A stretch of 63,764 nucleotides of DNA, filler included, from Licmophora abbreviata (taxonomy: Eukaryota): NCBI GenBank assembly GCA_900291995.1. It is 9 parts of 9 records of this genome, joined end to end, with 100 filler letters (N's around TTAATTAATTAA, not from the genome) between each part and the next. Parts side by side here need not be neighbours in the genome. Positions count along the whole stretch, not along the records: positions 36,721 to 51,593 come from OLMU01001211.1; 8 more parts are not named here. One strand, given 5' to 3'. The translations under genes and the position numbers were made by a program. The notes beneath the pieces are model-generated. The model was given only the letters and a program-made list of their open reading frames with translations, did not search any database and was not told where the DNA came from. Shown here piece by piece: positions 24,265 to 51,593 of the stretch; position 1 is the stretch's first letter, and the number at the start of each line of letters is the position of its first letter.

Positions 24265-25185
24265 ATGCTGTATTCTCGTATCTCTAGAGCGACGTTGTCG
24301 CGCTCTCGTACTCTCGCACGTCGCTGGTTGAGTGAAGATGTCAAGAAGGAAGCAACAACGAAATCCGAAACCACATCCAAGGGCTGGTGGGACAGCGCTG
24401 AGTTTTGGGGCGGCATGGGCGCCCTGGCCGGATGGGGAATGTCAGGTGCTGCCATTTACGATGCGACCTTGCAAGGTCCTGAAGTCATTTCTATGAACAT
24501 GACGTGTGTTTTGATTCTTTACAGCTCTCTGTTTGCTCGTTGGGCCTTCATCGTCAAGCCGCAGAACTTGCTCTTGGCCTCGTGTCACATTGCCAATGTT
24601 GCGGCGCAGATCAATCAGCTGCGACGTGCCCTACAGCACAAGATGGAATCTGGACAAGAGGAGGAAGTTTATGAGATCGGAAGGAAGGCCGCCGTCGCCG
24701 GAGCCGTGGGGGCAGGATTGATTGGGGCGGGTCCTGTTATGCAGAGGACGCTCGTCAATGCCAATCTAGGCGTCGTGTCAACTGTGGCCGGTGCTGATGC
24801 TGGGCCCTTTACCGTGCACTTTTGGGCCCCCATGTCCAAGTGGATGATTTCAGGAGCATCCTTTGCTGACCTCAATCGTCCAACAGACAAAGTCAGCCTT
24901 CCACAGGTACGGCCTGTTTTGTGTGGGTCGCAGGAAATATCGAAACTACGTGCCATGCAGCCAGCGCTTCAGGTCAACTCACCCCCGCTTTCCTATTTTA
25001 TCTTATAGTACACGGCATTGACATTGACAGGATTCTTCTTTACGCGGTATGCTCTTCTCGTGACGCCTGTCAACTACACCTTATGTAGTGTCAACGTGGC
25101 ATTGTTTGGAAGTTCGGCGTGGCATCTCGGTAGAAAAGTCAAAGCTGATTTTATCGACGAGAAACCAGTTGTGAAGGAAGAGTGA
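24265..25185 (+). CDS. Mitochondrial pyruvate carrier, tandem MPC1-MPC2 fusion (exons 24265-24906, 25009-25185)
   Basis: MPC1-like half: FWG..WG..AAIYD..PEVIS.NMT..L..YS.LF.RWAF.VKPQNLLL..CH.AN..AQ. MPC2-like half: AGPFTVHFWAPMSKW....ADLNRP.DKVS..Q..AL..TG....RY.L.VTP.NY.L.SVN. GTACGG...TTATAG intron. Confidence 0.92.
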
Positions 25186-25469
25186 CCGTAAGCATAAGTG
25201 TTTGGAGCTAAGTAAGACCAGCTAGACACACTTCAACACCAGTTACTCAATGATGCCTGTCGTAGGAGTGATCGCTGGCTGTTGTCTTTACAACACCGCC
25301 ATATCTACATCACTCTAGCTAGTAGAGTAGGGCTGTCTTGCACAGGTGTCCGTCGAGCTCAGTCCAAGGATGCGATGATTACCAGAAGCAAAGCTGTTGC
25401 TGGACTTGAATCATAGCTCTGGATGAAGGGACACTGTGAGAGCTCAACTCCTTTTCGAAATCCTCTCCG

Positions 25470-34800: not shown

Positions 34801-36809
34801 CTAGCCCTGCGTCGTAACAGCTTGATCTGCTGTTTCCTCTGTCTGTCTGGGGAGCTGGACAGCCATGAGACGATCCAGCTCTCCTTCGCGAATCCATCCG
34901 TCTGGGATCCGCAATGTCAGTCCACTGCGACCATTAAAGCTATTCCATTGGAGCCTCAGGCACAATACAGCCGTGCCGCGAGGGATTGTGCGAAGAAGCC
35001 TTCCTTCGTCGTCCCAGACGTAGGCCCCGTTCGTCGCAGTTACCCTGTATAAGGAAGGAAATGCCATAGAATCATCTGAATAAGTCGTCGGCACAGATAT
35101 AGGATTTTCCGGTGCTTCATCTTCCAATCGATGACGTTCATCAGAGGACACTTGCGGCTCCGCTGGAGCTGGTGGCGCTACTTCTTGTTGCTCTGGTTCT
35201 TCCTGTGGCTCTCTCTCGGCAGCAGCTTGGCGCAGAGCTGCCACTGCCTGTCGACGTTGTTCTTCCTCGCGCTGCTGCCGTTCTCGCGCATCCATGGCCG
35301 TTATATCACCACGACATGTCGGACACGACTGCTGCTGCACAAGCCACTCCCTTAGACAGCTCTTGTGAAAGACGTGCCCACACCCCGGCAGCTTCTTACA
35401 GGACTGGACAGTCATTTCATCTCGACAGATGATGCAGACCCGCCCAGCTTCCTCCAGCGCCTCATCACTCTCTACGGACTCGAATCGATTCATACTTGCC
35501 ATGAGCCTTCGATACTTGGCAAATGCCAACAGCCGACTCTTGAGATTCATGAAAGAAACGTATACTTCTCGAAAGAGGTTAAACGGGAGACCATAGTACG
35601 TCAGTACGATGGCAAAGAAGGTTACGTAAAAGAGAAACTTGGCCCCCTGTGCTTGCACTTCGACCGCCTGAACACCAGACGAAAAGACAAAAGCGACGCA
35701 GTTGAGAAGTTATAGCACGACATGATTAGCAAGACCATGTACAATACTTTCTTGCAGCCGTCAAGCCTCGACACTCACAAATGTCAAACTGGCCTTGTGA
35801 TCCTTCCAGGCATGAAGCCACGAGTGAACCCAACTTCGGTTGGGCGCATGGTCATGCAGGTAGTGTAAAAAGCCATCAAGTACATGCAAGGACCACAACA
35901 ACAAACAACTCGTGGCAGACACCAACAGGATCGCCGTTTCGAAAGCAAACAGAATGTACACACTGGGACCTTGCTCCGCAATGAGCTGTCCACATGCCAT
36001 GACGGCAAAAATGTCCAGCGCAATGAGTACTTGCAGTAGGAAGCAGAGCATGAGGTGCCTTCCCGTCACGTGGGGGTAGCCCTTGAGGAGCCCGTATGGA
36101 ATCGGCGCAATGGCTTCCTGGGTCATTCGTAAATGCTGCTCTCGCATCTCCGCCACCCAGTGCAAGCACTTGGCCAGAATCAAGAGTAGAAAGACTAGAA
36201 ACGTCGAGACTTCCAGTTCCGTTCGAAACATAGTCAATGCTAGACAGGTCTCAGTCACGTTCCACCGGAAAAACTCCCCGAGTCCCTCGGCTTCTGCTAG
36301 GCGAAGGCCATGCAAAACGTCTTGGTAAAGATGCGAAAGGTCCACACACATGAAGCAATAAGAGCATTCCCCATGACGAGATATGCCCACTTGGAGGAGG
36401 CCAAATACTGCAAGGCCAAGTACCACTGCTGCCGTGTACGCAAGGCATAGTATAGCAACGCCAAGGCCGCGAAGAAGGATGTGGGCACGTACGGAAGGCG
36501 CCTCCGCGAGTAATAAGGTGGGGGAGCGCCCGCACCTGGATCATTGTCATCATGGTTGTTTTCATGACCCATATTCTCGTCATGTACATCGTCGTCACCG
36601 TGCCGATTCAGAACTAACAANNNNNNNNNNNNNNNNNNNNNNNNNNNNNNNNNNNNNNNNNNNNTTAATTAATTAANNNNNNNNNNNNNNNNNNNNNNNN
36701 NNNNNNNNNNNNNNNNNNNNATCATGGCCTCTTCTTGAGCCTCGCGCTCCCGACGGGGCTCGTTTTCATCACCATCTGGAGCGACTGGTGGATCTTCGGG
36801 ACCTGCCAT
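34801..36809 (-). CDS. HRD1: ERAD E3 ubiquitin ligase HRD1/synoviolin; spans the spacer; frameshift 36314-36317; intron 35668-35778
   Basis: TM region RQQWYLAL.YL..SK...VMGN, LR.AE.E.L...TETCLALTMFR, K.LHW, ILFAFE, YGLPFNLFREVY. RING-H2 CIICRDEM..KKLPGCGHVFHKSCLREWLVQQQSCPTCR. Likely first codons MAGPEDPP... at 36809-36721. Confidence 0.92.
36621..36720. other. Artificial assembly spacer (inside HRD1)
   Basis: N44-TTAATTAATTAA-N44. Confidence 0.98.
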
Positions 36810-37370
36810 TGCCTATGCTCGGTCGAATTAGAGAGGGGGAGCGTTCGGCTCGGTCATGTGTCCCGTTCCACACAGGATGGTGCCATGGTTGATTTGAGTT
36901 TCTGCCAATCGGTGCACAGACAGAAGTCCGCCGACGACAGATCAGATCTTACATACTGGTCGGTCACCAGACTCCGCACGACTTTTTGAGTGCATGCCTT
37001 ACGCACACACACAAAATGAAAAAATTTGGACTTATCCGACTCCACAAGTACATGTATCAATACAAGATTCAAAACCTCATTCTCTCTACCAGAAAAACTG
37101 ATATCGTATTTATGTATTTCACCATGAACATTATATAAACAGGAAAGCCATAAGTAAGTCTAGCCGGCCGCTGTTTGAAATCCCATGAAAATTTGGCTGC
37201 GCCCGCACGGCAAACGGGATAGGCGCCAACTCTCTCTGCGTTTCGGTTCACCAAGTCTCTCTCGTGTCGGTCACTCTCCACACGATGGGAGAGGCAAGTG
37301 ACGAACGGCAGATTCCACGGCCTTGTCTTTTCTAAATCACCTTACTCTGCTTCGACAGTGTCTTGCCATC

Positions 37371-38960
37371 ATGGCGCACGGTGATTCTCGTTCAGATTCC
37401 ACGCTAGTACTGCCAGAGGACAGAATTGACCCAGTTCTCGTCACACCCTCCAAGAGCGGCTCCTCCACTGGAATTTCGCGTCGGACACCCACGCAGTCGC
37501 CCTCACAGAGGGATCCACCCCATTCCTCGACTGTTCCCATTTCTCCCCTTTTGTCGCCTCACAAGAGACGGAGACGGCGATCGTCCTCTATGACACTGCT
37601 GAACAGCAGTCAGTTCTCGAAAACTTGCGGCAAAAATCCAGTGCTTCTTTGCGTGATTGCATGGATACTAGTCTTGATAATTGGCGTGGGTATCTTGAGA
37701 TGGACGACTTTAGACCATCCCTCGCAGACCCCTTCTCTTCCATCGATACGACGACGAGTGAATATACCCACATCGAACGCTCACCACGTCTTTGCAGCCA
37801 ATACTACGGCGGCTGTACACAACGAAACTTCGTGGTCTGGCGGTGACGTCGTTCACGTGATTCACACAAGGTACGTGTGTGTGCACATACATCGAAGTTT
37901 CCTCGCCTCGCAAGCACACAGTCTCACCCCTTCTTTGGATCTCAGACTCATGCAGACTCAGCCGGACCTGGTGGAACTCGGCCTGGCCCGCTTGCAAATT
38001 TTCAAATCCATCTGCTTGCCGACCATGCAGGGCCAGACCTCCCAGAACTTCTTGTGGGTTATTCGAACGGATCCCCTATTGAATGAAACATTGAAGCAAG
38101 AGCTGTTGGGCGCATTGAGGCCCCTGACGAATGTTGTCGTACTTGCCTGCAATGAAAATCCGGATCACTTTCCTAGCTCCGAGACCCTATCGACTATATC
38201 GCCTGACCACGTCTGGACCAACAATTACGACCAATTGTTGGAACATCATGTCGCAGCACAGTCAAGGATGGTCTTGGAGAGTCGGCTGGACGCAGATGAT
38301 GGCTTGCACTTGGAGTTTGTTCGGTATATGCAGCAGCAAGCAGAACGCTATTTACGGTCGGATCCCACACGATGGGTGGTGTGGTGTGCATATAGTCACC
38401 TGGAGTGGCATTACAGCTCACCCTTTCACGAAAACGACCCTGAGATACCTGAAGGATACCTTGTAGGAATCAAAGCGGAAGAGTGTGTGACTCCAGGCAT
38501 TACCATGACGTACAACACGCACGTACAGGGCCTTCCCCATTCGTCGAATCATCAGCATTTGCATAAGACGATTCCGCCCTGTATGGATATCAATGCTACT
38601 AACTGCTTGAGACGACTGGAGCACTTGATGCCGACGGCGATTCGGGCACGGACTCCGACGAGTGCAGGCATGAGCAATGTTTTGTTTGGGCCATATGGAC
38701 ATCGTTCTTCCTACAAGCGAACGAGACCACAGCTGGAGCTGCAATCAACGGTGTGGAATGGCGTCCATAATATATTTGGACTGGACCGACCGGACGCGGC
38801 GCGTATGAGAGAGTATCTCGGTAGCAAAGTTATGGAAATTGCTGCTGACAATTGGAAAGGACAGTGTACTCGAGGTCACTCGTGCAAGAAATCAGCCAAG
38901 GAAATGCTGCAGAAACTCATGGAGCATCCTTGGATAACTCAGCACGTGGCGAAATTTTAA
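37371..38960 (+). CDS. Type II membrane putative glycosyltransferase (putative rhamnosyl transferase-like); in-frame intron 37871-37945
   Basis: Single N-terminal TM helix; IHTR|LMQ.QP, RLQIFKSICLPTMQGQTSQNFLWVI and SRLDADDGL (DxD). Confidence 0.75.
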   Translation: MAHGDSRSDSTLVLPEDRIDPVLVTPSKSGSSTGISRRTPTQSPSQRDPPHSSTVPISPLLSPHKRRRRRSSSMTLLNSSQFSKTCGKNPVLLCVIAWILVLIIGVGILRWTTLDHPSQTPSLPSIRRRVNIPTSNAHHVFAANTTAAVHNETSWSGGDVVHVIHTRYVCVHIHRSFLASQAHSLTPSLDLRLMQTQPDLVELGLARLQIFKSICLPTMQGQTSQNFLWVIRTDPLLNETLKQELLGALRPLTNVVVLACNENPDHFPSSETLSTISPDHVWTNNYDQLLEHHVAAQSRMVLESRLDADDGLHLEFVRYMQQQAERYLRSDPTRWVVWCAYSHLEWHYSSPFHENDPEIPEGYLVGIKAEECVTPGITMTYNTHVQGLPHSSNHQHLHKTIPPCMDINATNCLRRLEHLMPTAIRARTPTSAGMSNVLFGPYGHRSSYKRTRPQLELQSTVWNGVHNIFGLDRPDAARMREYLGSKVMEIAADNWKGQCTRGHSCKKSAKEMLQKLMEHPWITQHVAKF

Positions 38961-39115
38961 AACAAAGCTATGAACTATCTATAAATACCGCTGACTTCTT
39001 TCCTTGCCAAGAGCTTGAATGGGACGGTGCGTTAGCAAATTGCAGCCGCAATTAGGAGGCTACCAGGGACTCACTGCCAGAAAGATGGCTCGTGGGCCTT
39101 TTTATTCTGCGCTGA

Positions 39116-40078
39116 CTAGTGCTTGGCGAACAAGTACTCGTGGCATGCACGAGCACCCGCTGGAGTACCCACTTGACACGCACCGGGATAGTTCATCTCT
39201 CCAAGCTCCTTCATACATCCTTGTTGGTACTTGTCGTCGCAGCCACCGATAAACGACGTCTGTAATCGAAAGCCAGCTTCCTCGAGCAACTTCAGCAACA
39301 TTCCAAAATAGTACAGAGTTTCAGTATCGTTTAACCAAGCATTGGAAACATGAAACTCTCCTGTTACTTGATCGACGTGATGAAGAAAGTTTGGATCCTC
39401 GAGGAGAATGTCCCTCGACAATGCATACTCGCAACCTTCACAATCAAATTTGAGAACGTTGAGCTTTTCTATCTTCAAATAACGCTTCGTCGATGGCATA
39501 CTTGCTGTCCACCATTTCGTCTCTGTCTCTTGCTGCTCGTCGTTCGGATTCAGCAAGCTGGCAGCAACGTTATGAAACGTGACTCCAGGATGAAGTTGAG
39601 AGGGGTGCACGACTGTAGGATCAGCGGCGTACCCGTGACAGCCCCAGTCCTCGGCCAGCTGTACATCGAATGAATACGCATTTTCAATTCCAAACGAGAG
39701 GAAGGAGCACTCCTCATCCGGCTCGAGCTCAAACTGGCATATGGCGTGATTCCCATACGTCTGATCACCAACACTCAGCACCTCGCAGTGACCTTGCTCC
39801 TCCCAAGCATCGATAGGCTGTCTGTTGAGTGTGTCCGAAAGAGACTTCACATACGGAAGAATACTCTCTAGAGCCTCGTCTTGCTGAGCCGGGATCATTT
39901 CACTCCAGATATTGGTCGAAAGTGAAGCCGGGTCTAACCGCGCCATCTGGCCACCCTCCATGCCGGTCATCCGTTGAAGGCCCCGAAGTTCAGAGTACGA
40001 GTAGAGTCCGAGGGCCAACAGCAATAGCGAAGCAATGTCTCGTGCCCAGGGGCGCCCCCTCTGTCTACGAATTGCCAT
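39116..40078 (-). CDS. Signal-anchored methyltransferase, METTL24/FkbM-like (Methyltransf_22)
   Basis: CSFLSFGIENAYSFD, GC.GYAADPT, LKFDCEGCEY, VDQVTGEFH. Confidence 0.8.
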   Translation of the reverse strand: MAIRRQRGRPWARDIASLLLLALGLYSYSELRGLQRMTGMEGGQMARLDPASLSTNIWSEMIPAQQDEALESILPYVKSLSDTLNRQPIDAWEEQGHCEVLSVGDQTYGNHAICQFELEPDEECSFLSFGIENAYSFDVQLAEDWGCHGYAADPTVVHPSQLHPGVTFHNVAASLLNPNDEQQETETKWWTASMPSTKRYLKIEKLNVLKFDCEGCEYALSRDILLEDPNFLHHVDQVTGEFHVSNAWLNDTETLYYFGMLLKLLEEAGFRLQTSFIGGCDDKYQQGCMKELGEMNYPGACQVGTPAGARACHEYLFAKH

Positions 40079-40471
40079 CTTTGCGCGCTATTGTGGTCAA
40101 TCTTGAGACCGCTTCAACGCCGGCATCGAGGTTACCGCGATGTGCGTGATGCGTTGGGGGAAAATGTACAAAAAACAAGGCCGGGAGTCTTACAGATTTG
40201 TTACCATAAGTATAAAACGTGAAATGAGAGTAGGGCATATTGGACATATGTATGTGATAGACATATCTATCGAGACTCCCCCCAAAACTGAAAACGCGCG
40301 AAGTTAAGTCGCCGACGGCGACAAAAACGGGCGGCACGCAGATCCAAAAACTTTGTGGTGACGGATGCGTGCCCGGATCGAAATTCTGACTCTCCACCGG
40401 GCACCGGGCAAAGCGCCAACTTGTCTCACAATTTGCCTCAAACATCGACATCTCCTCCAACCATTTAGGCC

Positions 40472-41944
40472 ATGTCAACCCAAGGAGAAGGCGTCACCCC
40501 CGAAGCTCCGTCGGACGACCACAAGGAAGCCGAAGAGAGGAAGGGCATTGTCATCAAAACTATCACCGCTTATTGCACTGAAAACTGTGAGTTTGAAGAG
40601 CTTCGTTCCATCGGTGCCGCCCTCAAGGACGGAAATAAGCTCATTTGTAAGACAGTGTCTGGGGGTAGTACGAATTTTGCTTTCAAGGTCCGTCTTGAAG
40701 AATCCAAGCCAGGCGTACCGGCTCTTTTCGTCAAGATGGCCTTCTCGTACGCCCTCTGGGATCCGGAGCGAAGCGCGGAGTACGATTTGATTCGCACACA
40801 GAACGAGTTTGACCTCATGAAGTCATTTGCTGAGATGATGGGCGGTATCGACAAGGCCCCTATCCCTACTCCCTACTTATGCCTCGACGTTGACGACATG
40901 AAGTTGCTCATCACAGAATGGTCTGATGCCGACGAGCAGTGGGCCAATCAGTTCATTGACGGCAAGGTTGATCCACGCATTACTCCTCAGGCAGCAGACG
41001 CATTTGCTACTTTGAACCTAGCTCCGGTGACGGATCCCATGTTCAATGACAATGTGCGTCCTTGCATGCGCGGGTTGTTTCAGACATGCAAGACGATCTT
41101 TGGCCAGATGATTGGTGCCGAGGGTGGACCCACGGACGAGTTCGTTGCGATGGGACGAGAGATGGGACAAGAGGGCTTTGATGCTCTAATCGAAGGCATG
41201 GACAAGCAGTACATGAAGCGTGAAGTTCTAAGTCACAGTGATTCCAAGCAATTCAATCTTTTGGTAGAGAAAAAGCCGAGCGTGTCCGAGCTCAAGGACT
41301 TTGGACCGAATGGCAAATTTGTTATCTGCGACTGGGAAATGGCCTACGTGGGTCCTGCTGGACGTGACCCTGGTATCGTTCAAGCCTGGCCTCTTGCATG
41401 CGCATTCAGTCACGCTGCTCTGGGGCACAAGACCGAGGTCGGAGAATGTCTCGACTTCAATACCAAATTCTGGGACCTGTACGCAAAGGTTCTTGCTGAA
41501 AAGGGAGACAAGGACGAAGAGTATCTCCGCAAGGTATTTCTCGATAGTATCGGATGGATCGCATTGTATCTCTGCATTCCGTTCTATATCCTCGGCCTGG
41601 ATATTGATCACCTCCCTACTAGTTCGTTTCCGACAAAGCAGGCCGCGACAAAGGGTGCAATGGGAGCGCTTGGACTCAAGTTCTTGCAGATCTCCTTCGG
41701 TGAGGAAGAACCTGACATGACATTGGAGGAACTTCGGGCATGGTATAAAGAGACGGTTGACGGCTCGATTGAGAAGCTCTTGCTGGCTGCAAGTAAGGAG
41801 CGTCAACGACCTCGTCGTGCCTCGATGCTCCGTGAGACGGGACGTCGGGTGAGTGATGCGTTCGCGTACGACCAGCTCGCGCAACGTCTGTCAGATACAA
41901 CAGATTCCAATGAGATGGCTGCTGCCATTCGAGATGCACAGTAG
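40472..41944 (+). CDS. APH/choline-kinase-fold phosphotransferase, methylthioribose kinase-like
   Basis: GGSTNFAFKV, LFVKMA, LSHSDSKQFNLLV, ICDWEMAYVGPAGRDPG. Confidence 0.75.
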   Translation: MSTQGEGVTPEAPSDDHKEAEERKGIVIKTITAYCTENCEFEELRSIGAALKDGNKLICKTVSGGSTNFAFKVRLEESKPGVPALFVKMAFSYALWDPERSAEYDLIRTQNEFDLMKSFAEMMGGIDKAPIPTPYLCLDVDDMKLLITEWSDADEQWANQFIDGKVDPRITPQAADAFATLNLAPVTDPMFNDNVRPCMRGLFQTCKTIFGQMIGAEGGPTDEFVAMGREMGQEGFDALIEGMDKQYMKREVLSHSDSKQFNLLVEKKPSVSELKDFGPNGKFVICDWEMAYVGPAGRDPGIVQAWPLACAFSHAALGHKTEVGECLDFNTKFWDLYAKVLAEKGDKDEEYLRKVFLDSIGWIALYLCIPFYILGLDIDHLPTSSFPTKQAATKGAMGALGLKFLQISFGEEEPDMTLEELRAWYKETVDGSIEKLLLAASKERQRPRRASMLRETGRRVSDAFAYDQLAQRLSDTTDSNEMAAAIRDAQ

Positions 41945-42508
41945 CTGTGGCCATTCATTATTGCAGGTACCTGTACCGGTACCAGGTCTTTCAATTTACT
42001 GTACCAGGTACCAGATAGCTAGGAGGGCGCATACCCTGTGCCGGTACCAAGTACTCGTGCCTCGTCTTTGAATTTGAAAGCGAAACCACCTAGTCGAGCC
42101 TGGTGGTGCAGCAAATCATAAGCTCTATAGAGCACCCGAAGAGATTACGAAGCCTTCCACAAGTACACCACAATGTGAGCCTCTAGCAACATACAATTTG
42201 ATCTGGTCGTACCGGTATTATCTAGGTATGAAACGATCATCTCGACGTCGAACGGAAATACTCCGCCCGGGAAAGACTCATCCGACTCAAACTATCTGTG
42301 ATTAAAACATACATTCTTGAATAAATCTGAATACTGACGTGGCCAATGGCCTTTCCAGAACTCATTTGTACCAGGCTCTACATGAATGTACGTGGTTTGC
42401 GATGCTCACAATTCACGATTTCAAATTCTCAAGTCTTGTTCCGAACGCATCTCGGAATTCCGTTGAGCACAGTGATGTACGCCCAAGAACAAGCATGATA
42501 CTGTTAGT

Positions 42509-43684
42509 ATGACGGGCGAAAACAATGGTGCTTCAAGGCCCCAGGCCACCTCACCCGTCTCTATGTCCGACCGTCCTGTCTCGATTCGATCAAGAGAAGC
42601 CCTTTTGCTGCTTCCGCCTCCCTTGATTCCCTCGATTCGCTTTCCGAATCTCCCTAGTTCAAGCGTTCTGAGCGAGAAGTCTAGGCATATCCAAGAGACC
42701 CGCGTGTCATCCAATTTGACAGAAAAGATAGTGGGGGATATTCTAGTGGGCTGTGGTGTCACGTTTAGTGTTACACCGTTTCTTACGGTGGTAGACAAGG
42801 CGATTGTTCAAAGAGCAGCTGGAACGCACACTATCCTGCACAGCAGTTTCGAGAGTATTCGGGGGATAGCAAGAAGCCCGCTCGCCTTTGTCAAGAGTCC
42901 TATGTTTCTCATCATGTGGGGAACGTATGCGGTCACGTACTCGACAGCAAACTCGTTGAAGACGATTTTCGAGCACAAGGAGTACATGGAACGAAAGCGA
43001 AAAGAGCAGAACCGGAACCAGGCCGAATCTTCAACAGATTCGTGCACGAAGGAGCCTGTCGCGACCAGCCGTACAAGCAAGATGGGCATATTTGCCGGAA
43101 CTGCCTTCGTGAACTCAGCTGCGTCGTTGGTCAAGGATCGAACGTACGCGCGCATGTTTGGCGCGGGTACCCCAGCAAGTGTCCCGCTCATCTCCTATGG
43201 ACTATGGGCCATCAGAGATGGGGCCGTGGTGGGGTCATCGTTTCTGATGCCCGAAATGGTGTCCCACTCATTGCAAGACTATACGAGCATGGACCAGAAA
43301 GACGCCTTGCGTGCTTCACAGCTGGCCTGTCCAGTGGCCACGCAGGTTCTCGTTGGACCGATTCACTTGCTCGCGCTCGACTTCTACAACCGTCCGCTGG
43401 CCAACATGAACGCAGCCAGCGCAGCGTGGGAACGCCTTCAGCTACTCAAGAGTGGCGCTGGGGCGGTGATTGCAGCTCGTATTGCCCGTATTGCGCCGGG
43501 GTATGGTGCAGGAGGCGTGCTGAATACGCATTATAGAGACATGTGGAGAGAATACCTGATTCAGAAAGAGATTCTTCGAATCGAACTTGAACAAGACGAG
43601 GGTTCGCAGAAAGAACATGCCCATCGGCTCGTGGAACTCGTGGTGGAGCGAGCAAACACGGTGAATGACCAAGTGACAAAGTAG
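42509..43684 (+). CDS. Conserved hypothetical multi-pass membrane protein (possibly a divergent organellar carrier)
   Basis: PFLTVVDKAIV, YAVTYSTAN, KDRTYARMFG, VPLISYGLWAIRD, PIHLLALDFYNRP, ARIARIAPGYGAGGVLN. Confidence 0.6.
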   Translation: MTGENNGASRPQATSPVSMSDRPVSIRSREALLLLPPPLIPSIRFPNLPSSSVLSEKSRHIQETRVSSNLTEKIVGDILVGCGVTFSVTPFLTVVDKAIVQRAAGTHTILHSSFESIRGIARSPLAFVKSPMFLIMWGTYAVTYSTANSLKTIFEHKEYMERKRKEQNRNQAESSTDSCTKEPVATSRTSKMGIFAGTAFVNSAASLVKDRTYARMFGAGTPASVPLISYGLWAIRDGAVVGSSFLMPEMVSHSLQDYTSMDQKDALRASQLACPVATQVLVGPIHLLALDFYNRPLANMNAASAAWERLQLLKSGAGAVIAARIARIAPGYGAGGVLNTHYRDMWREYLIQKEILRIELEQDEGSQKEHAHRLVELVVERANTVNDQVTK

Positions 43685-43801
43685 GACGCTGAGTCGATTG
43701 TACAGCACTATTGGTTGGTAAGTCTGCGTGTTACTTGGTGTACAAACGAGGCAGACAACGATAGAGCACTGCACATACAGAATATTTTAGATAACTAAGT
43801 T

Positions 43802-46800
43802 TTACTCTTTTGTGTCGCTACCGCCCTCACGTTTGAAGGGCTTCACTTGATTCACTCCAATATTCTGCAATAGGCCTTGAATGTCATCTGCTTTCGCTCC
43901 AATGGCTTGTGTGACCGGAAACGCAGTTCGGTAGTCCCGTGGGTCAATCGGCGCATTCGTGGGAGGAGCTGACGCCGCCAGACCAAAGACTTGGGCCAGC
44001 TTCTCGTATGCGAGAAGCGTAATTCCAAACTGCGGAGACGACCGAAACACGCGCATACCCGACCCTTTGAAAAATGCCGAGATGCCCTCGTTTTCGTAAA
44101 TCTTGATGGAACAGTCCCTGATGCCAGTGTAGGCCAGCTCACCATCGCGTGTCACAACTTGCAAACGCGTCTTCAGCACGTCTGCAGGCGTGGTTAGGAA
44201 AGCCGCTGGCACCCCCGCAGCGGCACCAGCCACAAGGAGACTCATGGCTGATGCTCTGCCAGAACCCTCCCTCTCGACGAGGTACTCCTTGCACGCAGCA
44301 TAAGCTGGAAAATAAATAGCTGAGAAAGGAATGTCACGCAGCAGACAAGCAGCCGCGCCCTTGTATAGTCCAACAAGACCGAGCTCGGTTGCTATCTGAA
44401 GAGCCGACTGTGGCTTTGGCACTGGTTTTCCTTGCGCCTTCAATAGACGAGCCGTCTCTCCTTGCACTTGAAGGCGGATTTTGCTTATCTCCAGAGGGTT
44501 GGTGACCAACACTTGGCAAGCACCCGCACAACCACCACTCAGAAGCTCTAGCGACAGGTGAATAGAATCCTTGCCAGTGCTGGCATCGCTCACAGTGAAG
44601 GCTTTTCGCAAAATGTCATTCACGGTTAACTTGATGGCCTTTTCGGGAGCAACACCCACCAACTGAGGCAAAAGACCTCGGTACAAACCGACAAAGCCTT
44701 CGGCCCCTACAGTCTTTCGGAAACAGTCGAATGAATTTGCATACCTACATACGAGCGGAAAGAAAGATATAGTTGTTGGAAGTCGATTCGAATAATCATA
44801 AAAAGGCCACAAGGGTTGACGCGGGGTCAATGCACTTACATCCGACTCCCGTCTGCAGAAATACGCTGATTCTGCATTCGTGTTTTGACTAAATCAATCG
44901 GATACACAGTGGCCGCGCCGATGCCTCCTGCTACCGCAGCGAGACCGAAATTCTCAATCACTTCGACAAATCTCTCGGTGATGGATTTGGTTTTCTGTGC
45001 GGACGGGCCCTCTGAAATTCTACCATAACGGAAATCCTGTGGTGGAGCAAAAGTCAACTTGCCGTCTCTGCCTTCGACAGCCTCTAGTCGCTGAAGAAAG
45101 TCCACGCCAACAACGCTCGCTACATCCTCTGGAGTCACATAGCCATCTCGGTTGAGATCAAAAAGTTGAAAGATAATGTCAACTTGTCGTCGACCGAGCT
45201 TTCCTCCTAAGCCAATCACTCGATTTGCAACCTTGAAATCGTCGGGTGAGATCGGCCCGTTCTTGATTTCACATGCCGCTCGAATTAAATTAGAGATACC
45301 CGCAAGCTGCAGCAGCATCTCTTGAAAGGCGAGGAAATCCCCGTAGGCAAAGTACCGATCCCCAAGCTTTTTGGATCGCTGCTCCATGTGAGCAAGTATT
45401 GAAGCGGACGTGGACTTTGCAGCCTCGGATGCGCTCGACTGCTTCAGCTTCTCTGCCGTCACCGATACAATTGCAGCAGCCTCCGCCGCCTCAAATGGTG
45501 CCTTGCAGTAGATATTGTCCAGTCGATCCGCTACTCCATCCGGCAAACGCCAACCGCATGATGTCTTCAGAACTCGAACAAAATCGGTCGGGGCCAGGTA
45601 TCCCTCGGGTGTTCCTCGAATCTCTACATCATGCAGAAAGGCTTGTCGGCCCATTTCCCGCTGAAAATCCGAAAGAAACTGTGAAAAGCAGTGATGACGT
45701 ACACTCCTCGACCCATCCGCACCGAAATGGCGCTGCACGAATTCCGAATGAATATCAAAGTAGCGCCCGCCTTCATGCAGATCGAGAAAGTGCTAGAGAA
45801 GGAGAAGCGATAAAGTGCCGTGAGCAAAGCGTGAGGGTTCAATAGCTCTTCAAGCACTCGCTCGACACCGGAACAATCAAGTTGCTCCCACCTTGAAATC
45901 CTCGAGCGTAATCGTTCCCGTTCGGCTCTGATCCATCAACAGAAAGGCAATGTCTACTTCCGGATCAGGCCTCGCCATGAGAATATGAAAAAGACAAAAG
46001 TCCGGTAGACTGATCCGTTGGATGCCCTCGGTTTTCCGCAACAAGCTATACGTGTTGGCGAATCGCACTTGCGCAGCCGCGCCATTGGCCACGCCCTCTT
46101 GTTCTGAACAGCATCTGACAAAGTCATCCTGCGATGGTAAAAAAGACAGCAAGAGATTTAGCCAAATTGTCCAGCGCTCACATGCTTTTTTCTTCAAAAA
46201 ACTGGTCCTCACCATGGTCATGTAAGGGTCTCCCGAAGACGTTTCTCTCGATGCATACTTTACAAACATGCGAACCATGGGATCGCTCGCAAGGACATAG
46301 TCCCGAAAGACAGGCGCAGATACAACCCAGCAAGTAAGTGGCTCATCGCGATCTTCCGGCGACGCCACGATACTGGCACTGTGCTGTCGACGAAACAAGA
46401 AGCCGCCTTCGCCAAAGATGGTTCCAGGACCGAGAGAAGCCGAATTGAAATTCTCGTGCCAGACATCGGCACGACCCGAATGGACAGCGTAAATCAAACT
46501 GGCAATGCCACTCTTTGGAAGTTCAGTGATTCTTCTCGATGCAGGAGCCATATCCTTTTTCGCTTCGTCGGCAGTTTCTTGTAAAGGTGGAACAGCAGCC
46601 ACTTCTCCGTCGATGTCTAGCTCTGCCTCTTCTCCCGCCAATGATATCGACTCTGCAACATTCGATTCTTCAGTCGCCTCTTCTTCCTCAAGATCGAGGG
46701 CGTCATCGGCTTCGGCATTCTGCTGACTACTATCATCCTCCTCCATCCCTCCGTTGCGCATACTATCAATTTTCTCCTTGGCCGTAGTGAGCAGCCGATG

Positions 46801-47118
46801 CGCATCTTCCTTGTCCTTCCATGCGACAGGATTCTCCTCGTCCAGACATCCCTCGAGAATCACCAGCTCACCGGGTGCGAATGTCTTCAATGTCGCCACC
46901 TCTATGAATCGTTCAATCTGCTCTTCATCAAGACACGTAAAGAAGGGAGACTTGTGAAGAGCGAGTCGAATGAGAGCCCTGTCGTTGTCAGATTTGGCAG
47001 ACACAGTCTCCGAATGGTGATGTTTGCCCGTATCGAGCAGTTTGGTCGTCCAAGCGCGTTCTTGCTCCGATCGTTTCGCAGCTGCCTCTTTCTCTCTGTC
47101 GACTGCCTCGTCGCTCAT
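43802..47118 (-). CDS. Aralar/citrin (SLC25A12/13)-like mitochondrial aspartate/glutamate carrier with N-terminal cNMP-binding and EF-hand domains; introns 46129-46212, 45793-45891, 44745-44839
   Basis: Carrier repeats [90 protein letters not shown]-hands [13 protein letters not shown] and [12 protein letters not shown]. cNMP domain SPFF..L...F.PGE.VI.EG...IY.V.SG...LGPG.IFGEGG. Confidence 0.92.
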
Positions 47119-47537
47119 GCTATGTCAGTGTAGTGGGGAGTCAGTCAAGCTTTGGGAGAGGGGATGACCATCACGTGCATACATGCGAGAGAGGGGAGAT
47201 GAGTGACAGGGAGCAGATTGATTCCGAACCAAAACAGGAAAACGAGAAAAACGCGATCTTTCTGTTCGAGCTCGTTTACAAGCTATCTAGTGTTGGAGCT
47301 CGCACACCAAAACGCCATCCCTAATGTCCCTACCCGGCGTATCACGAAAGTCTTGTTGGACCGGCGGCGCTTCCAAAAGACGCTTCCAGCCGCAGTTCCG
47401 TTCTCCTTGGTTCCTTATCACTCCTGCTGTTCCCCAGAAGTCTCCGTCCCTCTGTTTTACTAGTTCGAATCATCGCAAGAGAGCGGTTTGGAAGAGAAAA
47501 AGAAGAACGAACAAGATTCTGCAGTGCGGGTGACGAC

Positions 47538-50500
47538 ATGCTCACCATCACGTCCGACCGCGCAGACACGACCTATCGACGCACGACAGAAGCACTGCAG
47601 TCGACCTTTCATCTGTCGACAGACCTCTCTGCGATCCCTTCACTCGTATCCTTACGTGATGTTCTCGTGGAAGAAGCTTCTAGTAGTACAACGCTGATGC
47701 AAGAGGATGCTTCTGCTACTACTAGCACCGACGAGTCATCGCGTCCGACAGGCGAAGACTTTCTCTCCTCCATGCTTCATTCCTCTCGCGCAGAGTTTCC
47801 ACCTTCATCTCCGCATGCGAGTCGTCAATTTCTGCATCGCGCACTCGAGCATCTGGAACAGCCCTCGACCACTTCTACTCCTACCACGGATGGCACTGCT
47901 GCTCCTATTGACCCGCCCCAGTCTCTCGAGCAATCCTTACTTCAACAGCTCACAGAACTCATTACCGACACTCCTTACGACTCCTATGCTCACGCCCAAC
48001 AGGCCTTACTTGATCTAGGTCATTCCATTCCTCGCCGTGTCTGTCAACACCCCTTCCGACGAAACGATATTGTCTGGGTCTGCCGTACATGTCAAGCCGA
48101 CGAAACCTGCGTGCTGTGCCACGCATGTTTCACACACTCGAACCACGAAGGCCACGACGTGGCCTTTTACCACGCCCAAGCCGGTGGCTGTTGCGATTGT
48201 GGTGACCCCGATGCATGGGACAGCAATGGATTCTGTCCGCGGCATGGGCCGCAACAACATACGAGTGCATCGTTGGCGCCGGAGACGGTGCAGCGTGTCG
48301 AAGGTTTGGTGCCGGCCGTGGCCGATTGGCTTGTTCGGTGCATTGCAGCGCAGCAGGTGGAAGCGCATCGGCGTGCGCAGCGTGTGACCAGCAGAGTGGC
48401 GTCCCGGGTCCCTGCGGCATCGAGTGTCGATGAAAGAAGAAATATTCATGGGGAAGTAGAAGTAGAGGAAGACGAAGATATGGCGCCACAAGATATTGCT
48501 GCATTGGAACAACTACAAGACGAAGAAGAAGACGAAGAAGAAGACGTGGAAATGCAGGATAACCAGGACCCAGAGAATCAAGCTGACTTTGACCCCGTCC
48601 TCGTGGACATGGGCCACGTCTTTGTACCGGCTGCCGCGTCAACCTCGAAGTCACGCCATGGCGTTGTTCGCAGCAACAGTGGCGAATCTCTGGCCCAGCA
48701 GCTCGGAACCTTGGGACGAGAACAGCACGGCTTGTACATTGTGTTGCACGCCGACGAAATTCACAGTCAGTCGCAACTGCAAGACGCGCTGCGAGCCTTG
48801 CTGTTGGGAAGTTCGACTGCATCGCATACATACTTTAGCGATTCTTTGTTGCAACGCATGGCACGTGTATTGCGGGTGCATGGACAGCTGGTGGTATGGG
48901 GAACGACGGAATTGCTGTCGGAATGCTCTCCGACGCAAGTGCACTGTTGGAAGGATGGAGATCGTTCAGCATCGGCGCGTGTTGGGGCTGTCTTGTTGCA
49001 GCGTGCTTTCAAGTTGGTACGGACACATGGACTGATCTGTTCCCTTGTGACACGAAACGAACTGCAATGGGAGCAACGCTCTGTGGCAGTCTTGCAGTGG
49101 CTCGGACTCGTGGCGCGCAGTTGCGACCCACTGTGCCAGACGGTGGCTTCTTGTTTGCTGTCTAACGAGCACCTGGTGCCACTGCTGCGTGCTGATTTTT
49201 GCTTGGGAGCATCGATTACCAAGGCATGGCACTCATTACTGCTAACACTTTTGGCGGTGCCAACCTTGAAACGACGTCTTGCGGCAGCTTACTGCGACAC
49301 GTACCGGCACGTGACGGCCGAATATGCGCGTGGTCGAGGTACACTCGAACGGAGTGGGTATACCCTGTCGGTCCAGTTTCTGAACCGCGTCACGTACGTG
49401 GTAGATTTGGTGTCGAGGCGAGATTTGCTGGGCAAATTGGGCAAGGCTTTGCTGGAAACATTGTCCGTAGCCACAGCCGATGAATCGTCAACACGGGGAC
49501 CGCTAAACCCGAATCACTTTGTCTTGACACACCGAAGATATTCTCCATGTATCTCGGATCTGAAGTGTGTCTTGAACGTTCAGGGTATTCCGCGATTATT
49601 CTTGTTGCCGTTGGGTAGCTTCTTGAAAGACTGGATGCAGGCATTGAGTCTGGCGCAGGAAATGGATGGACAAGTGTGGCGAACGCCAGCCCAAGGACAT
49701 GTAGAAGTCGAACAGCGAGGGTGGGTGGGTGCATTCAATGCAAGTATCAGCTTGGCGAGTTTGTATGATCGGCTGTTAAGCTGGGACGATAGCGATGCCT
49801 GCCCCGTAGATCCCGCCGACTCCATGGTAGCGCAGAAACTTCCGACTGCTGTCGATGTAGCGTTCCGAGTGTTGCTCGACGGAATTGGTGGATGGCAGGA
49901 AAAGGCTATGGCCTCCTACATTCCAGTGTCGGGCGATCCATCTGGTGCAGGAGGTCATCATGTTTGCACAGCGAGCTTGCCGTTCTCTACGTTGGCAGCC
50001 AAACACGGGACACCTTTGGCATTCAAAGCTTTGCCGATCTCACAGGCCACCCGATGGAGCTTTCATTTGCCTCTTCATCGATTCTTTGCTGCGTGTTTGC
50101 GCGAGGTGTGTCGACGAGCGGACCCATTGCATGGAATTGAAGCTCTGTTGGGTAAATTGGACAGAGAGCTAGATCCGGTCATATCGTTTGAGCTATTTCG
50201 TGGCTTGATGGAGTTTCCAATGCTCGTGTTGTCGCGTGCTGCGCAGATTCGAGCGAATCTTTGGAGGCGCAATGGCTCAGGAATGAGAGATCAGGTCTTG
50301 AACTACAGAGAGCCTCCTTTTTGTCGGACATTGCGGGATGCCGATATTCTTCTCTTGCAGTTCGCGGCTCTTCGGCTGCGATCTCCGGACGGACGTGACA
50401 TTGGGTGTTCTGTATTGGTACACCTGTTGCTTCACCGGCTTGGACTTTCCGATGCATATCTTGGACTCTCGCCAGCCCCGAATGCAAACCTTGGCCTGTA

Positions 50501-51593
50501 CAAACAAGAGGCGAAAGCTGGTTTATATCCACTCGAGGAGGTTAGATACCGTGGCGATTCTTCAGTTGAATCATCAATTCCATGGCCTTTCTCGCCTGTA
50601 GAGGATGCTGAAGCTGCGCTTGCGCTGGTAGAAGAGACTCTGCATCTTCTAATTGTGTTGATATCTGAGCTTCCTCCCTCTTCTCCTAGAAACAAAGCAG
50701 AACATACCAAACAGGCGAAGGAGCGGTTGCGACGGGAGGTTATTCATCGTCTGGCATCTGGCCCGAAGACTCACAGCGAACTCAACGAAGTACAACACGT
50801 TCTTTCCTACTGGGACACCACATTCTTGAACGAGGAAGGCCAGTTTCTGGACCCAGATGATGCTGGTAGTGCGGCCCTTGGTGAAGCTCTGGTGGACGTG
50901 GCAGATAGGAAATTCAGTAGTGCCAGACTTACTCCTGATCAATGGGAACTCCGTCGGTCGGCATGGGATGAGTACGACCCAGCATTCTACCACATCAATG
51001 TGACGGATCATCAGCGAGCTGCGGAAAGCCGACCAAAACCCGCGGTGACAACCACTTCGATCGGGCTCGAGCCTCACCCCTATGCACCGTTTCGTGGAAC
51101 TTCCTTTCACCCGGCATTTCGCCGCTTGCAACGCGACATGACATCTGACGCTACTGTGCTTTCAATCCTATATCGCACGCTTCACGTGCATTGTCGCGCT
51201 AGACGTTACTCGGAAGACAATTCTCCGCATCAGGATACCACAATGTTCCGGGGCTCGGTACGTTTTCTGCTTCATTGTTTGCTTCCCATTGATGAATTGC
51301 CTCTTGTGTTCATATTGCTACTGTCTTTTCACGCTCTTTCATCTTGTTTCAGTTGGCATACGACAGCCAGGCCATGAGCGAGACGGTTTTGGCTCGTGCA
51401 GTACACCTGTTTACCCTAGGGGCCCGCGTGTGGGAAGATACGAATTCAGTGGACGACAAGCTGTGGAGGGAGAAAGGGGGCGGCTCGACAGGTAGCATTT
51501 TTCACAAATTTGAGAGCCAGTTGCCGACCGCGAAGCAGTGGGTGGAGGGGGCTCTTCTGGCTGACCCATGTACAGTGATGGACTCAGAATGGT
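47538..51593 (+). CDS. UBR1/PRT6-type N-recognin E3 ligase (3' partial); intron 51258-51352
   Basis: UBR box CQHPF..VWVCRTCQ.DETCVLC.ACF..SNHEGHD...GGCCDCGDPDAW; ClpS-like YIVLHADEIHS; LSVQFL; SFHLPLHRF; LWRRNG; LRREVIHRLASGPKTHSEL. Confidence 0.93.

Follow-up and report, generated by a model that had tools for sequence, protein, structure and literature searches.

Can a mitochondrial transporter receive a nucleotide-like signal through a domain built into its own N-terminus? A gene of the diatom Licmophora abbreviata (assembly GCA_900291995.1) raises this question because it places a cyclic-nucleotide-binding (CNB) domain ahead of the EF-hands of an aspartate/glutamate carrier (AGC). The human proteins, AGC1 aralar (SLC25A12) and AGC2 citrin (SLC25A13), share with the diatom protein an EF-hand architecture, a three-repeat carrier and a C-terminal tail, but they have no N-terminal CNB domain, whereas in the diatom protein this domain is fused into EF-hand 1. 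The gene lies within OLMU01001211.1 (positions 36,721 to 51,593 of the window, which is the whole 63,764-nucleotide stretch of DNA that was analysed). It is predicted from genomic sequence to comprise four exons that form one 1012-aa frame, with the following features.

46213..47118, minus strand: exon 1, encoding an acidic leader, the entire CNB domain and the first half of EF-hand 1 (aa 1-302)
46252..46995, minus strand: CNB domain of the PKA-R/PKG A-domain type (aa 42-289; AlphaFold, Foldseek)
46498..46848, minus strand: acidic, mostly disordered insert of 117 aa in the beta2-beta3 loop (composition, conservation, low pLDDT)
46369..46416, minus strand: phosphate-binding cassette (aa 235-250), with Glu237 kept, Arg244, and His246 at 46383-46381
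46129..46212, minus strand: intron 1, 84 bp, GT-AG, in frame and stop-free
45892..46128, minus strand: exon 2, encoding the remainder of EF-hand 1, EF-hand 2 (degenerate loop, 46038-46000) and EF-hand 3 (loop, 45933-45898)
45793..45891, minus strand: intron 2, 99 bp, GT-AG
44840..45792, minus strand: exon 3, encoding EF-hands 4-8 (EF-hand 8 loop, 45159-45124, canonical in appearance) and the start of the carrier
44745..44839, minus strand: intron 3, 95 bp, GT-AG
43802..44744, minus strand: exon 4, encoding the carrier repeats and the C-terminal tail (43996-43805)
44644-44639, 44338-44333 and 44044-44042, minus strand: AGC contact points in exon 4 (Glu-Lys, Arg-Asp and Arg, respectively)

The start codon is the first Met downstream of an in-frame stop in exon 1. 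Three in-frame splice solutions exist, which differ at intron 1 alone, and the junction used here was chosen because two relatives (P0073 and P0012) match across it. Pfam places EF-hands in exons 2-3 and Mito_carr in exons 3-4, and its cNMP_binding match in exon 1 (E 4e-6, 27.1 bits) falls just under the cut-off of 27.5. This model reproduces the initial annotation of the locus, which had described a cNMP-like domain, EF-hands and three carrier repeats joined in frame by three introns.

The junctions in L. abbreviata are read from genomic DNA alone, and one could argue that the model artificially unites two neighbouring genes, one for a CNB protein and one for a carrier. RNA mapping yielded eight short contigs from one of three runs, none of which spans a joint; one of them passes unspliced through intron 1, and this run may be DNA. 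We nevertheless consider an artefact extremely improbable. Exon 1 is common to the CNB domain and EF-hand 1, and the identical domain order recurs in several algal classes, including transcriptome-derived, full-length proteins of Attheya, Corethron and Tribonema that carry the whole architecture in one chain. The initial annotation had also raised the possibility that the cNMP exon belongs to a separate transcript. Because exon 1 holds half of EF-hand 1, this is ruled out unless that EF-hand is split as well.

On the 5′ side, a divergently oriented gene for a UBR-box N-recognin E3 ligase occupies 47538-51377 (plus strand). On the 3′ side, a convergent 391-aa frame with hydrophobic segments and no Pfam match (42509-43684, plus strand) ends 118 bases from the carrier stop. 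Beyond it is a 490-aa frame (40472-41944, plus strand) that also has no Pfam match and by eye resembles a phosphotransferase or kinase.

The carrier portion has the hallmarks of an SLC25 protein, with Px[DE]xx[KR] motifs intact in all three repeats (aa 679, 782 and 885), and the model of relative P0012 has the six-helix carrier fold and superimposes on AAC/UCP1 with TM scores of 0.72-0.79 (Foldseek). The substrate contacts of citrin are given as E404/K405, R492/D493 and R588 (PMC11539162, section 3.2), and all five residues are found here in their motif context, as placed by motif rather than by a full-length alignment to the human proteins. Furthermore, the EF region conforms to the eight-EF-hand architecture: for that of the close relative P0073, aralar and citrin are the top PDB matches (E 5e-17 and 7e-16). 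The Attheya protein, as modelled by AlphaFold, resembles 4P5W, 4P5X and 4P60 as well as carrier structures, with TM scores of 0.62-0.84 for the EF domain. Where aralar and citrin have a C-terminal amphipathic helix, the P0012 model shows helices at 1091-1097 and 1103-1117 after the carrier, with pLDDT values of only about 60-70. The acidic N-terminus has no evident presequence, which is compatible with carrier-type import. These results bear out the identification as an aspartate/glutamate carrier in the initial annotation.

A search of the assembly, which is incomplete, matched the EF exon at one place and recovered no second AGC-like carrier; the next carriers share 24-39% identity. As far as this assembly shows, the gene is, judged from sequence, the sole aralar/citrin-type carrier of the cell. 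Compared with the human proteins, the diatom EF domain carries an added helical pair, the EF-hand 8 loop looks canonical, and the loop of EF-hand 2, which binds Ca2+ in aralar and citrin, has decayed. The helical pair is Ala-rich (45330-45500, minus strand; P0012 aa 593-636) and is present in many diatom members and absent in Corethron, Tribonema and Nannochloropsis. A small set of diatom-like relatives (P0005-P0011) has an intact His-type cassette and carriers that fail the AGC patterns at contacts I and III, possibly reflecting either a change of substrate or poor gene models.

The initial annotation had allowed that the N-terminal domain might lack a cNMP fold, but structure prediction finds that fold with high confidence. 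Apart from the insert, the AlphaFold model of exon 1 has pLDDT values of about 90-97, and it aligns to PKG CNB-A with TM scores (normalized by target) of 0.88-0.91 and an rmsd of 1.3. The model contains an eight-stranded beta-roll, a helical subdomain and a phosphate-binding cassette, as predicted for a member of the CNB superfamily. AGC-fused CNB domains also cluster with the PKA-R/PKG-like A domains of the same genome. The fold held in common with CNB-A of PKG and of PKA regulatory subunits includes the N-terminal helices, and Gly-Glu and the cassette length are retained. In contrast, the diatom domain has a long acidic beta2-beta3 insert, its cassette has His for Arg209, Gly-Gly for Leu-Ala and an Arg at position -2, and it is a single domain on a transporter with no kinase.

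In alignments to aralar and in the models, the last CNB helix (alphaC) coincides with the entering helix of the first EF-hand. Among 116 sequences examined, a spacer of 13 residues separates the alphaB Phe from the EF-hand 1 Phe in 92 of the 98 measurable cases, and all 98 fall within 12-14 residues.

In aralar and citrin, EF-hand 2 is described as the sole Ca2+ site, and in the human structures Ca2+ binding sets EF-hands 1-2 in motion as a unit (PMC4250520). At EF-hand 2 the diatom sequence has K/E/I/D in place of citrin D66/T68/D70/E77 and Gln in place of the Gly at position 6. The loop is poorly conserved and variable in length, and the Ca2+-binding pattern is matched in 0/88 measurable diatom-like sequences and 0/15 others of the ochrophyte clade. 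The pattern is a demanding one: the vertebrate-type EF-hand 2 loop of P0178, with Thr at position 3, escapes it, and just 5/16 measurable sequences that have no CNB domain fit. Therefore, the case for decay draws on alignments and conservation and not on the pattern count alone. By these measures EF-hand 2 is degenerate in sequence throughout the ochrophyte clade.

Other loops could in principle bind Ca2+. The EF-hand 8 loop fits the pattern in 78/78 measurable diatom-like sequences (of 94), with Asp at position 12, and EF-hand 3 fits in 16/88. Because P0149 and Tieghemostelium share a Ca2+-type EF-hand 8 loop, this is probably an old site; in the human carriers, which form homodimers through EF-hands 4-8, EF-hand 8 lies within the static dimer interface (PMC4250520). 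Whether Ca2+ controls transport by citrin at all is contested. PMC11539162 reports that purified citrin is insensitive to Ca2+ in proteoliposomes (section 3.4), and that the citrin carrier domain functions without the N-terminal domain, which matters for import.

The cassette, [15 protein letters not shown], shows how the pocket departs from ordinary cyclic-nucleotide binders. Gly236-Glu237 provide the Gly-Glu pair, the position equivalent to Ala202 is Gly, and His246 occupies the Arg209 position, in the Arg column of the solved Plasmodium PKG domains, with Arg244 two positions upstream. The beta2-beta3 site, usually a short loop, holds the 117-aa insert (29% Asp/Glu, conservation 0.26, mostly low pLDDT). 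Both the acidic split of the domain, first put at about 110 residues, and the His for Arg replacement had been noted in the initial annotation.

These two peculiarities occur together. Across 116 sequences, His accompanies an insert of 52-219 residues in 86/86 measured cases and Arg accompanies a loop of 5-13 residues in 24/24; three were not measurable and three were missed by the motif pattern, among them P0046, which has Met. On the sequence tree this coupling is one event and not 86, and some of the sequences are near-duplicates. The coupling fits the link reported in PMC2246266 between Gly169 of the beta2-beta3 loop and Arg209 in cAMP binders. Arg is retained in the non-diatoms and in Corethron, and almost all other diatom-like members have His and the insert.

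Given these changes, the domain may have lost its ligand. KCNH channels and CNNM transporters provide examples of ligand-free CNB-homology modules. By analogy, the His-type domain could be a structural, docking or chaperone/import module that does not regulate transport, and the loss of Arg209 together with an insert that breaks the beta2-beta3 link would agree with this, as would the import role of the citrin N-terminal domain (PMC11539162). Decay of the domain is clearly possible, since two members of the CNB branch (P0170 and P0171) have degenerate CNB remnants immediately before EF-hand 1. However, the pattern of conservation makes a ligand-free module unlikely in our assessment. In 71 His-type sequences (a set that excludes the non-His P0055 and P0046), the cassette is the best-conserved block of the protein, with a score of 0.93; other parts of the barrel score 0.64-0.75, the carrier 0.65, the EF domain 0.63 and the EF-hand 2 loop 0.43. 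The conserved residues line the pocket: Gly236, Glu237, Arg244, His246 and Ser247 are kept in 69-71 of the 71. Furthermore, the cassette Glu is present in 82/87 His-type sequences, whereas the ribose-binding Glu position varies among 23 Arg-type ochrophyte sequences (five each with E, D, Q and V, and three with I). This variation also suggests that even Arg-type ochrophyte domains may not be ordinary cAMP binders. Cassette conservation would, as a counterpoint, also be compatible with a protein-binding or packing surface.

The initial annotation offered either dual cNMP/Ca2+ control or a ligand-altered sensor, and our results favor the latter while leaving the former weak. Under dual control, physiological cAMP or cGMP would occupy the His-type pocket and Ca2+ would act through EF-hand 8 or 3. 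Glu237 and Ser247 are retained, Arg244 may substitute for Arg209, and in PKA an Arg-to-Lys change costs only about ten-fold in affinity (PMC2246266). Among 26 other CNB domains scored in the genome, the Arg is present in 18 and His in none, and such a number of Arg-type proteins implies that cNMP signalling is in place. We nonetheless regard dual control as quite improbable, because the EF-hand 2 loop has decayed, purified citrin is insensitive to Ca2+, and both PKA and PKG bind cNMP less tightly once the Arg is gone. For example, R177Q in CNB-A of PKG I causes a more than 1e5-fold loss in cGMP affinity (10.1101/2022.04.28.489861). The static setting of EF-hand 8, with Asp at position 12, and the infrequent fit of EF-hand 3 also count against it.

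The reading we think somewhat probable is that the CNB domain still has a working pocket, whose ligand would be nucleotide-like or phosphorylated; this pocket would have replaced the Ca2+ input at EF-hand 2 and been re-tuned in diatoms. It is favored by the Gly at the Ala202 position, by a ribose-binding Glu that has become fixed, by Arg244 close to His246, and by the absence of such a His from the 26 other CNB domains scored in the genome. Precedents exist in which Arg209 is lost and the ligand is changed or unknown: the nucleoside-binding PKAR of trypanosomatids and CNB domains of the PDZ-GEF/RAPGEF type, with PDZ-GEF having Met or His at this position. In trypanosome PKAR, whose ligand was switched, an added Glu at the Ala202 position blocks the phosphate (PMC10959531). 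By contrast, the diatom domain has Gly at this position and an Arg nearby, so a phosphate would be possible.

A mechanism for such a re-tuned pocket can be outlined. The protein would be an inner-membrane exchanger of Asp for Glu plus H+, with a regulatory domain that faces the intermembrane space and begins with the CNB domain. Ligand binding would shift the alphaB/alphaC hinge, and the EF1-2 unit, which in the aralar structures responds to Ca2+, would move along, such that the CNB domain would have taken over from the Ca2+ input rather than supplementing it. In Arg-type relatives (Nannochloropsis, Tribonema and Corethron), binding of cAMP or cGMP is most likely. In the diatom His type, the pocket would have been re-tuned once, when His replaced Arg and the insert arose, and retained thereafter; its ligand is most likely a purine nucleotide or other phosphorylated metabolite, with charge supplied by Arg244 and with affinity for cAMP or cGMP that would be weak or pH-dependent. 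The most likely output is gating of Asp/Glu exchange, which would in turn govern how redox equivalents and nitrogen cross the inner membrane. Alternatively, the domain could control import or assembly: since transport by purified citrin is insensitive to Ca2+ and needs only the carrier domain, EF1-2 motion need not gate transport.

How widely the fusion occurs bears on the claim that mitochondrial transport was remodelled in this lineage, which proves too narrow. Our first search listed 72 longer relatives, the named ones being diatoms; among those listed, 72/72 have EF-hand domains, 71/72 a carrier domain and 61/72 a precomputed cNMP assignment. The fusion is also found in xanthophytes (Tribonema and Heterococcus), Nannochloropsis, a chrysophyte and Heterosigma, and further in four deeper-branching sequences and Ichthyophonus hoferi. 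A third protein search added Nannochloropsis-like sequences only, and thus the range observed is no proof of absence from oomycetes or brown algae. The initial annotation had also invoked a fused MPC gene from the same window. This gene (24265-25190, plus strand, one intron) encodes two MPC (PF03650) domains in tandem, with matches at about 24364-24666, 24793-24924 and 25009-25164. It lies on a different contig (C1209) of the window, in which contigs are joined with N spacers between them, and this rules out its link to the carrier as evidence, and it adds no support.

In a tree of the EF and carrier regions (66 hand-picked sequences, LG+G4, quick SH-aLRT), every CNB-bearing sequence falls in one branch (support 99), and a 28-sequence branch contains all named ochrophytes (support 100). 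The CNB domain is absent in Tieghemostelium, Ancoracysta and a vertebrate-like sequence. An AU test did not reject placement of Ichthyophonus with the vertebrate-like sequence (p 0.40), a grouping named after seeing the tree, and the CNB-only tree requires three changes. The history may therefore be that of a single ancient origin with losses or of repeated fusion. The Ichthyophonus protein (P0201, 674 aa, incomplete at its C-terminus) is a holozoan AGC-like sequence with a canonical Arg-type CNB domain and the same EF-hand 1 spacing, which may reflect inheritance, transfer, contamination or convergence. The cassettes of deep-branching members are close to canonical, and EF-hand 2 is intact in at least one of them (P0149). 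Sequence comparison would fit a two-step change, with decay of EF-hand 2 in the ochrophyte branch followed by Arg to His and the insert in diatom-like members after Corethron.

To our knowledge, no SLC25 carrier is under direct cyclic-nucleotide-binding regulation, and the fusion points to a putative, unstudied mode of control for a mitochondrial transporter. A broader proposition is that protists have a widespread class of AGCs in which a second messenger acts directly on the gate by way of the CNB domain and EF1-2, the messenger being cAMP or cGMP in Arg-type algae and, in diatoms, a new ligand read by the His/Arg pocket. This is doubtful at present. If true, it would place a mitochondrial carrier under cyclic-nucleotide control without a kinase, possibly an old state lost by animals and fungi, given the Ichthyophonus copy. 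Regardless, the role of the AGC N-terminal domain is disputed, as a Ca2+ gate or as an aid to import, and the fused proteins are natural test cases in which EF-hand 2 has been lost and a ligand switch sits on the same mobile helices. Matched Arg-type and His-type versions exist for comparison. The diatom AGC sits where mitochondrion and cytosol exchange redox equivalents and nitrogen, and a ligand would tie signalling to this flux.

A full-text search, with most subscription papers and supplements outside its scope, found no paper on an AGC-CNB fusion. Term searches found no mention of it in the text of the diatom carrier preprint 10.1101/2024.12.16.628690 (whose supplementary tables could list the architecture), PMC7016017 or PMC9546453, and no occurrence of "carrier" in PMC2246266; a literature search on diatom cAMP signalling yielded nothing usable. 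The domain combination is already visible in automatic annotation, in a JGI name and an ESM Atlas cluster of 59, and its distribution in sequence databases shows that the fusion is not peculiar to diatoms.

The ESM Atlas contains further clusters that combine cNMP and mitochondrial carrier domains (66 and 123 members, scores of 0.82 and 0.81), which serve as leads only; our search found no study of the oomycete or chlorophyte clusters. CNB-carrier fusions may thus be recurrent in protists. One cluster, of 955 aa, combines Peptidase_C92, cNMP and carrier domains and is commonest in oomycetes. Another, of 621 aa, combines cNMP and carrier domains and is commonest in chlorophytes, and in both the CNB domain is joined to an SLC25 carrier, as in the diatom AGC.
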